Positions 2,201 through 27,269 of a stretch of 64,000 nucleotides of DNA are shown here, piece after piece. The translations under genes were made by a program, and so were the position numbers. The DNA comes from a virus, in IMG/VR virus record IMGVR_UViG_3300024346_000007; one strand, 5' to 3'. How positions within the stretch are numbered: the first letter of the stretch is position 1; the number at the start of each line of letters is the position of its first letter. The notes beneath the pieces were generated by a model, which was not told where the DNA came from, did no database searches, and was given only the letters and a program-made list of their open reading frames with translations.

Positions 2201-2843
2201 TGCCTTAGCGACTGAGGGTAAGGAGATTAAAGTTACTTGGGAAGGGGGCAATGATTCAGGAGGCTATAATCTATTTGTAGATAGTGAACAGGTTAACTAT
2301 GGAGATGCATTCTTTGATGAGGTCATAGATTTCGTATCTGATACTATAGACTATGGGTCTTGGGCTGGTGATTACTTTGCTGATGGGGCTGTGTATTATA
2401 ATAAAGATGAAGGGTCTTTCATTGGAGAAGGTAAAGATACGACATCTGATGGAGGTTGTTTGGAAGGCATATCTATTGAGATTAGAGTTCCTAAATATTT
2501 AAACTTCGACAGTATTGAAATACATACTGAAGGTACACATTGTTGGGATGAGCTAGATGCCAGCTTCAGATTTGAGATAGCCAATGGACCAGTATTTAAA
2601 GAGCATTCTGAGATTGAGAAGTCTATGGAATCTTACATACTGGAATCAATAATCCATACTTTAGAAACAGATGATGCCTGCAAAGATGAAGAGATAGGAT
2701 GGGTGTACAATGACTGGTCTATACCTAGAGAAAAGTTTGAAGAAGTGGGAGATAGTCTGGTGTTTATTATTGATAGCCTAGATTTTACCTACAACAATAC
2801 AGTCCATCAATCCTATCACATAACAATAAACGAAGAACAATGA
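2163..2843 (+). CDS. DUF6878-like acidic protein (paralog 1)
   Basis: IKVTWEGGNDSG motif; paralogous to next ORF. Confidence 0.6.
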   Translation: MKDKQLDLRQWLDALATEGKEIKVTWEGGNDSGGYNLFVDSEQVNYGDAFFDEVIDFVSDTIDYGSWAGDYFADGAVYYNKDEGSFIGEGKDTTSDGGCLEGISIEIRVPKYLNFDSIEIHTEGTHCWDELDASFRFEIANGPVFKEHSEIEKSMESYILESIIHTLETDDACKDEEIGWVYNDWSIPREKFEEVGDSLVFIIDSLDFTYNNTVHQSYHITINEEQ

Positions 2844-26008: not shown

Positions 26009-26033
26009 GAAAGGGGGTAAAAACCCCCCTTCG
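26009..26033 (-). terminator. terminator downstream of tmRNA
   Basis: AAGGGGG...CCCCCTT stem followed by U-rich tail on minus strand. Confidence 0.7.
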
Positions 26034-26074
26034 TAATTAAACCTACACTAACTAAGTGGACCTAGTGGGATTCG

Positions 26075-26872
26075 CATTTGTATTCTTTTGTTAGATCCAC
26101 ATATTTATATAAAACATAAAAATGTTAAAATATAAACAAAATAGAAAGCTAACGGAGTTTGTCTGTGATTTTTGCAAATCTATAGCCACTAAGCCTACAA
26201 CAGAGTTGACCAGGAACTATAAACTTAACAGAAAAAACTTTTGTTCTAAAGTTTGTAGTTTAAAATATGGACATCTTGTTAGACCTAATATATCTAGATC
26301 AAATAGATATGACATATCAAAACATTCTGGAAATAGAGAAGACTTGTTTACTCCTTACAAATACACTTTTAATACTTGTAAAAGGAGATTTAAAGAATTT
26401 TCTATAACAATTGAAGATCTAAAAAATCAATGGGAATTACAAAAAGGCACTTGTCCTTATAGCAAAATGCTACTAGAACTTCCTGTCTATAATAAAAAAA
26501 CCCATCCATCTATTAGAGCTTCTTTAGATAGAGTTGATTCATCAAAAGGATATATTAAAGGAAATATACAATTTGTATCTACTTTAATAAATTTTATGAA
26601 ATCAAACCTATCTCATTATGAAACTTTAGATTTCATAGACAACCTCGTAAAGAACTACAACTCTTGTTACCAAGAGGATCAGACTATATCATCACCCGAT
26701 CTGGGTGCTGGACGCTAGTGCGGTTATTAAGAGACCTTTATCTCTCCGCTAGTCGTTGAACCTTCCTAAAGTGTACTTTAGGCTTGGCTGCTGATTGTCC
26801 TATGTTATAGGAGTTCCAGCAATTCATCCAGTTTTTAATCTAGTATTCCTACTAGATGGGTCCGATTCCACA
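26075..26872 (-). mobile_element. group I intron (798 nt) in the tmRNA T-loop
   Basis: P AAUUGCUGGAA, Q AAUCAGCAG, R GUUCAACGACUA, S GAUAUAGUCU; P3 CUGGAUG/CGUCCAG; IGS UCGGACCCAU; U.G at 5' splice site; terminal G. Confidence 0.92.
26122..26718 (+). CDS. intron-encoded HNH-like homing endonuclease, antisense to intron
   Basis: N-terminal CxxC..FCS..C Zn finger; QKG.CPYS, SLDRVDSSKGY..GNIQFV...N.MK. Confidence 0.85.
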   Translation: MLKYKQNRKLTEFVCDFCKSIATKPTTELTRNYKLNRKNFCSKVCSLKYGHLVRPNISRSNRYDISKHSGNREDLFTPYKYTFNTCKRRFKEFSITIEDLKNQWELQKGTCPYSKMLLELPVYNKKTHPSIRASLDRVDSSKGYIKGNIQFVSTLINFMKSNLSHYETLDFIDNLVKNYNSCYQEDQTISSPDLGAGR

Positions 26873-27099
26873 AACCCACGTCTTCGCAATGAACAATAAT
26901 ACCAGCATCTCACACGCTTAGTACTAACAATCAAGAGGGAGATCCCCCGTCATTTGCACCGTAGTTTTGATCTGCAAGCTGATCAGTAAGGGGATGTCCG
27001 GAGACAGCTAACCACCACCCCAGTCCTTATTTAAAGAGTCGATCGGGGAAACTCTATATTCCACTTTGTTTGAAGCGAGGTTGTAGACACCTCGGCGGA

Positions 27100-27171
27100 T
27101 TAAGCAAATGTTGCTTCATCGGCACCAACGAAGGCCATAAGGTCATCGAAGGTCATAGTTGACATCTCGTC
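27100..27171 (-). other. tmRNA tag reading frame (A)DEMSTMTFDDLMAFVGADEATFA*
   Basis: Resume codon GAC after AAUAAAU; ends GCU UAA. Confidence 0.7.
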
Positions 27172-27269
27172 ATTTATTCTTTCGTACAGATTTAAAGAGA
27201 ACTAGTACGGTGTCTCTGCGTGTGGTACTACCCTCCGATTACGAATCGATACCGGTTAGGCCCAGTTAT

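Follow-up and report, generated by a model that had tools for sequence, protein, structure and literature searches.

A putatively mobile group I intron in a phage tmRNA gene hosts a reverse-oriented gene encoding a PacI-like protein

The window analysed here is a stretch of 64,000 nucleotides taken from a 78-kb IMG/VR virus record (IMGVR_UViG_3300024346_000007; CheckV completeness 46%). From about 15 kb to the end of the window all convincing genes are found on the minus strand, with one clear exception, an ORF located on the plus strand at positions 26122-26718. Why does a single gene run against all its neighbours, and what sort of element is it part of? A preliminary description of this DNA had interpreted the ORF as a homing endonuclease gene, encoded antisense to its intron and overlapping the catalytic core of the ribozyme. 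The analysis reported here leads to a reading that we regard as likely, in which a mobile, IA-like group I intron, inserted in the T-loop of a tmRNA gene, carries a PacI-like homing endonuclease gene in reverse orientation in the loop of its P9 extension. Judged by sequence, the closest relatives of the phage at the tmRNA locus are crAss-like phages.

The host gene of the intron is a tmRNA gene, split in two exons on the minus strand. Exon 1 (26873-27263) includes the 5' acceptor strand GGGCCUA, the tag frame and the pseudoknot region, and terminates with GUGGGUU. Exon 2, CGAAUCCCACUAGGUCCA, is only 18 nt long (26057-26074), and was defined by sequence reading and by ARAGORN analysis of the spliced sequence. 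It provides the CGAAU part of the T-loop, the T-stem 3' strand CCCAC, the acceptor 3' strand UAGGUCC and the discriminator A; the CCA end is not encoded. The acceptor stem, as read from the sequence, carries a G3.U70 pair. A hairpin followed by a T run, resembling an intrinsic terminator, was detected by a terminator scan on the same strand, 3' of the tmRNA gene (26009-26032).

The two exons are separated by a group I intron of 798 nt (26075-26872, minus strand), which was located by Rfam alignment, and whose boundaries were set by reading the sequence. The match to the Rfam Intron_gpI model (RF00028) covers the full model (1-253), and scores 97.3 bits against a gathering value of 50 (E 6.9e-24). 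The ribozyme core, P1 to P9, spans positions 26660-26883 of the minus strand and features a P7.1/P7.2-type insert typical of subgroup IA; by its sequence the intron is IA-like, and over about 160 nt its core shares 75% identity with the psbA intron of cyanophage S-PM2. The insertion point follows the second T-loop nucleotide (UU^CGAAU). In P1, GUGGGUU^U... pairs with ...GACCCAU, and a U.G pair is found at the 5' splice site. At the other end the intron sequence is ...CAAAUG, with the terminal G at 26075, followed by CGAAUCC.

Joining the exons in silico (GUGGGUU^CGAAUCCCAC) yields a sequence that ARAGORN recognizes as a 409-nt tmRNA, encoding the tag DEMSTMTFDDLMAFVGADEATFA, 23 residues long and ending with FA. 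No tmRNA was called by ARAGORN in the unspliced region, with or without the intron search, and the Rfam tmRNA model gave no match to the split gene even at E-values up to 1. Self-splicing of the intron is proposed, as the in silico junction restores a tmRNA with 98% identity to a gene that naturally lacks the intron. Because of the intron, standard annotation misses the tmRNA genes carried in this form by phages with crAss-like relatives.

The ORF encodes 198 amino acids, from ATG to TAG, and lies on the plus strand within the minus-strand intron, as originally described. It is found in the loop of a helix extending P9, the strands of which are UUGUAGUUCUUU (26649-26660) and AAAGAAUACAA (26078-26088), the latter ending 3 nt before the 3' splice site. 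The helix, identified by reading the sequence, consists of 11 pairs with one bulged G; when the natural ORF-less allele of the intron (L025, 278 nt) is folded to minimum free energy, a counterpart of this helix is obtained. With 95 homologues, the best at an E-value of 1e-127, the ORF is far beyond chance. Matches in the PHROG collection are to phrog_3322 ('endonuclease', E 6.6e-23) and phrog_3118 ('HNH endonuclease', E 8.7e-13).

The ORF and the ribozyme model overlap by 59 nt (26660-26718), corresponding to 19 codons plus the stop. In this stretch, codons from about 180 to 198 on the plus strand are set against P9, the P7 3' strand with J8/7, P8 and the P3 3' strand on the minus strand. These PHROG matches and this overlap, together with the three alleles described below, bear out the view of a nuclease-like gene of homing type which runs into the catalytic core. 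The dual coding of the last 19 codons, also noted earlier, is real at the DNA level, as it follows from the Rfam alignment; the tail, however, has the look of read-through, not of a protein part maintained by selection. The tail is best explained, on sequences and on the predicted structure, as a disordered by-product of reading into the ribozyme, because residues 183-198 have pLDDT values below 50 in the AlphaFold model, the free-standing relatives examined have no such tail and end near residue 180, and intronic relatives enter the core to terminate at variable stops (..QED, ..QEDQTISSS, ..GAGR). The tail motif EDQTISS recurs in homologues and results from reading the conserved GAUGAUAUAGUCUGAUCCUC in antisense; the motif is nearly identical in the homologue P0003, in spite of only 66% identity in the body of the protein. 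No stop in the ORF precedes the ribozyme, and the frame runs antisense through P9, P7, P8 and P3 up to the first stop met, the sequence of the resulting tail, about 16-19 residues long, being dictated by the RNA's own requirements.

The overlap raises another possibility, also advanced in the preliminary description. The endonuclease mRNA, whose full complementarity to the intron extends over about 640 nt and takes in the core, might pair with the pre-tmRNA and block its splicing, thereby coupling expression of the gene to tmRNA shut-off. Complementarity is given by the layout itself, no terminator was found on the plus strand 3' of the ORF, so that the transcript could continue antisense to exon 1, and an overlap of the 3' end of the ORF with the core recurs in all the antisense relatives. 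However, in the seven antisense loci the overlap measures 1, 23, 23, 23, 23, 53 and 59 nt, and a sense-oriented member of the family (L047) likewise extends into the core; the ORFs seem therefore simply to end at the first stop inside it. The same protein clade occurs moreover in free-standing, intron-free layouts, and the ORF-less allele L025 keeps both intron and tmRNA. We attach little probability to such an inhibitory pairing. Equally little credit is given to its broader form, in which the endonuclease transcript would double as a long antisense RNA targeting the ribozyme core together with exon 1 of the tmRNA and, at a defined stage of infection, would either switch off phage tmRNA maturation or switch trans-translation between the host and phage tmRNAs. 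If true, this would represent a regulatory use of a homing endonuclease gene.

That the tmRNA gene hosts a homing element is indicated by a natural allelic series. The exact 26-mer spanning the spliced junction is present in nine viral contigs. One of these (L038) carries an intron-less tmRNA gene with the same tag, identical to the spliced product at 401 of 409 positions (98%) and exactly so across the splice junction. In L025 the same tmRNA and intron are found, about 98% identical to those in the window and with the same splice points, but the intron is reduced to 278 nt. Pairwise alignment shows that the segment missing is the 520-nt tract 26100-26619 (plus strand), which includes a 22-nt leader and codons 1-166. 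L025 is best read as a deletion derivative, not as the ancestral state, because codons 167-198 are retained, of which 167-180 encode residues that in free-standing relatives belong to the conserved domain of the protein. Three alleles, intron-less (L038), intron without ORF (L025) and intron plus ORF (window), are thus known at one homologous tmRNA site, so that gene and intron are polymorphic for presence or absence in the manner of homing elements. Such a set is the expected footprint of a homing element.

Homologues of the ORF are tightly linked to tmRNA genes also outside this group of phages. In viruses, a directly adjacent tmRNA or tmRNA intron was found at 20 or more of 29 loci encoding relatives, a count including one locus (L019) in which a permuted tmRNA was matched below threshold. 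Rfam scans of 20 loci from bacteria or MAGs detected an adjacent tmRNA or group I intron at 17, two of them being intron-only loci where the tmRNA host is presumed. Intact tmRNA genes with a relative at a distance of about 40-350 nt occur in many viral contigs, and among cellular genomes in those of cyanobacteria, Sulfurovum, Legionella, Neisseriaceae and Bacteroidota.

Relative position and orientation of gene, intron and tmRNA vary, and five layouts can be distinguished. In the first, the gene is in tandem with an intact tmRNA gene, 40-350 nt downstream of it, as seen in many phage contigs, in eight cyanobacterial genomes or MAGs and in a Neisseriaceae MAG. In the second, the gene is convergent with the tmRNA gene, and abuts or overlaps its 3' end (L006, L007, Sulfurovum L067, cr56_1); the protein tail VVELGAYDSPV encoded by cr56_1 is the antisense of a T-arm/acceptor-like sequence. 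In the third, a free-standing gene is found just after a tmRNA gene interrupted by an ORF-less T-loop intron, in Rhodocytophaga (L049, in which the gene is apparently frameshifted) and in a Saccharibacteria-binned locus (L050). These two loci had been considered as cases of sense genes lying in introns; the assignment was rejected, since exon 2 precedes the gene in both. The fourth layout is represented by L047, where the gene is sense-oriented and placed inside the P8 loop of a position-3 tmRNA intron, which occupies the same T-loop subsite as the intron in the window. In the fifth, the gene is antisense and placed after P9; to this belong the window and cr6_1, cr128_1, L005, L043, L045 and L046. 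Trial splicing followed by ARAGORN confirmed the tmRNA for L043 and L025; L001, L002, L005, L045 and L046 were not called by this procedure, and the tmRNA identity of these five loci is based on T-arm and acceptor sequences read by eye.

In three loci (L006, L008, L015) the gene is bracketed by repeats of the last 15 nt of the tmRNA, either exact or matching at 14 of 15 positions. Even where there is no intron, the boundary of the cassette is consequently placed in the T-loop region. Cassette boundaries and position of the intron together point to a target site at or near the T-loop. The family is sporadically distributed: in one cyanobacterial order a homologue was found in 9 of 151 genomes, and in two of the nine (G140, G147) it is disrupted. 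Such a distribution suits a selfish element more readily than a cofactor of tmRNA.

The nature of the encoded protein is less easily established from family searches. Pfam and NCBIfam provided no family for it, and no Pfam HNH match; a weak match of the N-terminus to zf-FCS was the only hint. Two parts can be recognized, an N-terminal zinc-finger-like part with the pattern CxxC...CxxxC, and a following domain resembling the beta-beta-alpha-metal nuclease domain of PacI, which includes the residues SLD-R137-VD-SSKG-Y144 ... N148 ... N157 ... K160. Across 38 aligned members the four N-terminal cysteines are conserved, as well as the motif S-L-D-R-(I/V)-D-S-S-K-G-Y-x-x-G-N ... N-x-x-K, in which Y144, N148 and N157 are invariant. 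Arg137 is invariant too, and corresponds to the catalytic histidine of HNH nucleases (the DH of Cas9 and of I-HmuI). None of the histidines is invariant in the 38 members, and in sequence terms the family thus lacks the catalytic histidine that defines classic HNH enzymes.

A profile search of the PDB returned only PacI, whose DRSDSFEGY..QN..CN..K aligns on DRxDSSKGY..GN..IN..K; the E-value of 1.1 is not significant alone. A PDB sequence search with profile A2 gave sub-threshold Cas9 HNH matches only. PacI emerged also from structural comparison. The AlphaFold model has a mean pLDDT of 80, and PacI is its best HNH-type structural match, with a VIA-align Z of 5.6 over 99 residues, a score in the range that unrelated folds can reach. 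Further HNH nucleases are listed at Z 2.5-3.8, with McrA, Gme HNH, Cas9 HNH and T4 Endo VII at 2.9-3.8. Foldseek found nothing in the PDB at E 0.001 or better, all values being 0.09 or worse.

PacI (PDB 3LDY/3M7K) is a His-Me finger enzyme of group 20, known to have a tyrosine in place of the histidine (PMC5714182, PMC3384342). This tyrosine is located in the omega-loop, and attack on the DNA is attributed to it. It shares with the family the motif D-R-x-D-S-x-x-G-Y ... N ... N-x-x-K, the absence of a catalytic histidine and zinc-binding cysteines around the beta-beta-alpha-metal site. With the histidine absent, a tyrosine at the matching place and the asparagine metal ligands retained, the sequences agree with group 20 at an overall E of 1.1, and membership in the PacI-like His-Me finger nucleases is probable. 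Differences are also evident. PacI is a free restriction enzyme recognizing 8 bp, whereas the family described here is tied to tmRNA genes and has the extra N-terminal CxxC...CxxxC module, and sequence similarity between the two is marginal (E 1.1). Because no histidine is invariant in the family, nuclease activity of the protein is argued from the analogy with PacI, which makes Y144 the candidate nucleophile.

The same lack of histidine could be taken to mean that the protein is not a nuclease at all, and is rather a nucleic-acid-binding protein of HNH descent that acts as a partner of tmRNA or of its gene, in processing, in protection or as a splicing helper; the linkage would then denote functional partnership and not selfish mobility. 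Every member has arginine in place of the catalytic histidine, some His-Me finger groups devoid of the histidine are inactive DNA binders (PMC5714182), linkage to tmRNA genes is tight even in bacterial chromosomes, and the protein falls in no Pfam or NCBIfam family. A partner of tmRNA would, however, hardly be expected in 9 of 151 genomes of one order, with two copies broken, nor to be lost from a nearly identical allele (L025) that keeps tmRNA and intron; intron-less tmRNAs exist without the gene, tmRNA 3'-end repeats flank the gene as in a mobile cassette, and the invariant tyrosine and asparagines match the active-site pattern of PacI. A role as maturase, in particular, fits poorly with copies standing beside intron-less tmRNA genes. 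We consider partnership with tmRNA unlikely, and favour a PacI-like nuclease of homing type.

If the gene is expressed, a promoter must exist on the plus strand, because all neighbours run the opposite way. The element ATATTTATA, which the preliminary description had taken for the promoter of the ORF, is indeed present at 26101-26109 on the plus strand, 13-21 nt upstream of the ATG. Its occurrence in the window is at chance level (8 copies found vs 4.0 expected; 7 of 100 shuffles reach 8), copies standing at 2-64 nt from start codons, and a promoter role is not sustained. A scan for sigma-70-type promoters was similarly at chance level (8 vs 8.1 expected), nor is the window enriched (10 copies vs 8.3 expected) in TCCACAT, a sequence that precedes the ATG in several relatives. 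The -7 box of Bacteroidota is TAnnTTTG. This motif is found 11-31 nt upstream of the ATG in L001, L002/L046, L005, L047 and L004, against an expectation of 0.04 per 60 nt, and is absent upstream of the ORF in the window. Antisense orientation had been thought to secure translation independent of the host RNA; as a necessity this is weakened by L047, a sense-oriented member hosted in the same kind of intron.

The gene might also be a relic that once encoded a homing endonuclease, is no longer expressed or active, and is on its way to being lost. The natural deletion allele L025, broken copies elsewhere (the frameshifted L049, the disrupted G140 and G147) and the failure to find a recognizable promoter would all suit such a state. 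Against it, the frame is intact over 198 codons and every residue invariant in the family is kept, a full-length copy 97% identical is found on other contigs (P0001), and the protein is modelled with a mean pLDDT of 80. Decay of the gene in the window is accordingly judged very improbable, and an intact homing endonuclease gene remains the reading preferred here.

How did the gene come to lie in the intron in reverse orientation? Maximum-likelihood analysis groups the seven antisense-intronic members, without exception, with three of the four convergent ones in a single clade (support 86/82), in which the layouts interleave. The convergent L006 is placed inside a clade of four intronic members (support 100/98). 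The topology of this locus, with the gene convergent and the tmRNA 3' end duplicated, is that of the window, the proximal repeat being found where the window has the ribozyme. The nearest relatives of the gene are free-standing and convergent, and adjoin the tmRNA 3' end, only about 18 nt from the T-loop. On these sequence grounds, the reverse orientation most likely reflects ancestry, a convergent free-standing gene standing beside the tmRNA 3' end having become enclosed in the intron, as in 'collaborative homing'. An order of events among the layouts may be suggested accordingly, with a free-standing gene beside an ORF-less intron, as in the third layout, as the proposed precursor.

Once enclosed, the element might be maintained as follows. 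The protein would be made from its own plus-strand transcript, and in a mixed infection would cut phage tmRNA genes that lack the intron, in the sequence coding for the T-loop or close to it. Repair from an intron-bearing genome would then copy intron and gene into the cut allele. As self-splicing would restore a functional tmRNA, carriage of the element would cost little.

If this scheme is correct, the family would add a seventh catalytic flavour, PacI-type with tyrosine for histidine, to homing endonuclease families, and a site-specific nuclease aimed at the conserved T-arm of tmRNA could be of practical use. Elements of this general type are known. The endonuclease family is probably new, with no prior characterisation, and the orientation of the gene appears to be unreported for phages and bacteria; no antisense endonuclease gene in a phage or bacterial intron was met in a literature search, and the papers on crAss-like phages that it yielded place their introns in protein-coding genes rather than tmRNA. 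The intron in the window would thus carry what appears to be the first reverse-strand intron endonuclease gene of a phage or bacterium.

In bacteria, tmRNA genes with a group I intron in the T-loop are known, and were first described in Clostridium botulinum (PMC11915505, tmRNA database 2025). Endonuclease genes have been found in only 23 of 844 tmRNA introns, all of LAGLIDADG type, located after P9 or in P7.1, and the 'position 3' subsite has been reported only from the class Bacteroidia (PMC11915505). The subsite used in the window, after the second nucleotide of the loop, is taken to be position 3 in that numbering, and would be shared with bacterial introns of the class that hosts crAss-like phages. 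The intron described here differs in being phage-borne; reverse-strand genes, HNH-like genes and phage cases are not mentioned in that survey (PMC11915505).

HNH-type proteins are also encoded inside phage group I introns, as in the case of I-HmuI and I-TevIII, and phage intron HNH ORFs occupy peripheral loops and sometimes overlap core sequences (PMC3984707). I-HmuI and I-TevIII are in contrast sense-oriented and keep the catalytic histidine. Antisense endonuclease genes are known from group I introns of nuclear rDNA, for instance at position L2066, and belong to the His-Cys box type (PMC9548176). In both rDNA and tmRNA the endonuclease gene lies opposite to the ribozyme strand in a gene for a non-coding RNA, and hence needs transcription signals of its own. 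The rDNA cases are however eukaryotic, with Pol I and Pol II, spliceosomal introns and polyadenylation, and their proteins are of the His-Cys box family.

The closest parallel for the assembly of the element is provided by the S-PM2 psbA intron and the neighbouring free-standing gene of F-CphI, the pair for which 'collaborative homing' has been described (PMC2988022, PMC6083498). According to this model, a free-standing endonuclease pre-adapted to the insertion site of an intron becomes enclosed by the intron (PMC2988022). Mobile group I introns are thought to arise in this way, by enclosure of an endonuclease gene already aimed at the insertion site, and natural series of the stages are rare. 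The family described here is found in tandem free-standing, convergent, beside an ORF-less intron, enclosed in sense, enclosed in antisense and secondarily deleted states, a set that would make the assembly route of mobile introns directly testable. The arrangement seen at psbA, a free-standing endonuclease gene beside a gene with an ORF-less intron, is the proposed precursor of a composite mobile intron, and the same layout is found in L049 and L050. The two systems differ in that the host gene is here a non-coding RNA gene, and the endonuclease is PacI-like, whereas F-CphI is Endo VII-like. In the tmRNA system, moreover, the enclosed stage also exists, in both orientations, sense in L047 and antisense in the window.

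In the antisense/convergent clade, the tree group uniting antisense-intronic genes and genes convergent to the tmRNA 3' end, a short motif, TCCACA(T), is found repeatedly, preceding the start codon by 27-70 nt. The motif is found at 26094-26102 (plus strand) in the window, where it is not enriched across the sequence as a whole, and also precedes the ATG in the relatives L001, L002, L003, L004, L006 and L043. The breakpoint of the deletion in L025, an intron allele lacking 26100-26619, falls within it. TCCACA(T) could be either a cassette signal or a remnant of a tmRNA 3' end (..UCCAC..). A partial second copy of a tmRNA 3' end (TCCCTACGGCTCCAG; 2415-2500, plus strand) is found in the Saccharibacteria-binned locus L050, lying after the tmRNA's true 3' end and ahead of the free-standing endonuclease-like gene.

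Cyanobacterial relatives (loci L053-L074) are about 320-350 aa long, the extra part being C-terminal to the nuclease-like domain. Some matches (L053, L074) cover a longer stretch of DNA than expected, suggestive of an insertion or disruption.

The tag encoded by the window tmRNA (27100-27171, minus strand) is acidic, unusually long (23 residues), and ends in -TFA, not -LAA. An identical tag is found in the intron-less relative L038. The exact T-arm/acceptor 26-mer of the window is also present in seven contigs from viruses (L034-L037, L039-L041), each about 48-100 kb long, in which the tag, GDYNIVDYTHVA, differs from that of the window, and the tmRNAs are permuted according to ARAGORN calls. 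A weak tRNA-like element (window 22921-22998, minus strand; Rfam tRNA, 31 bits, barely over gathering), not called by ARAGORN, is found near a normal tRNA-Met (22543-22616).

In five viral contigs, GOLLD RNA (315-330 bits) is located about 1-2 kb or less from the tmRNA and endonuclease-like gene pair, on the minus strand in all (L009:4418-4832, L010:1657-2066, L011:3894-4307, L012:2429-2836, L014:3714-4121). Three orphan motifs from Rfam, RAGATH-7-assoc, RAGATH-20 and RAGATH-9, were identified at L001:3072-3193, L001:4330-4475, L003:3071-3168 and L003:3815-3972, all on the minus strand, and may form internal or adjacent parts of divergent phage tmRNA-like genes with an 8-nt T-loop. In the crAss-like phages cr6_1 and cr56_1, the three motifs share their strand with the tmRNA-like T-arm/intron and lie upstream of it, RAGATH-7-assoc and RAGATH-20 immediately so, RAGATH-9 at a greater distance.
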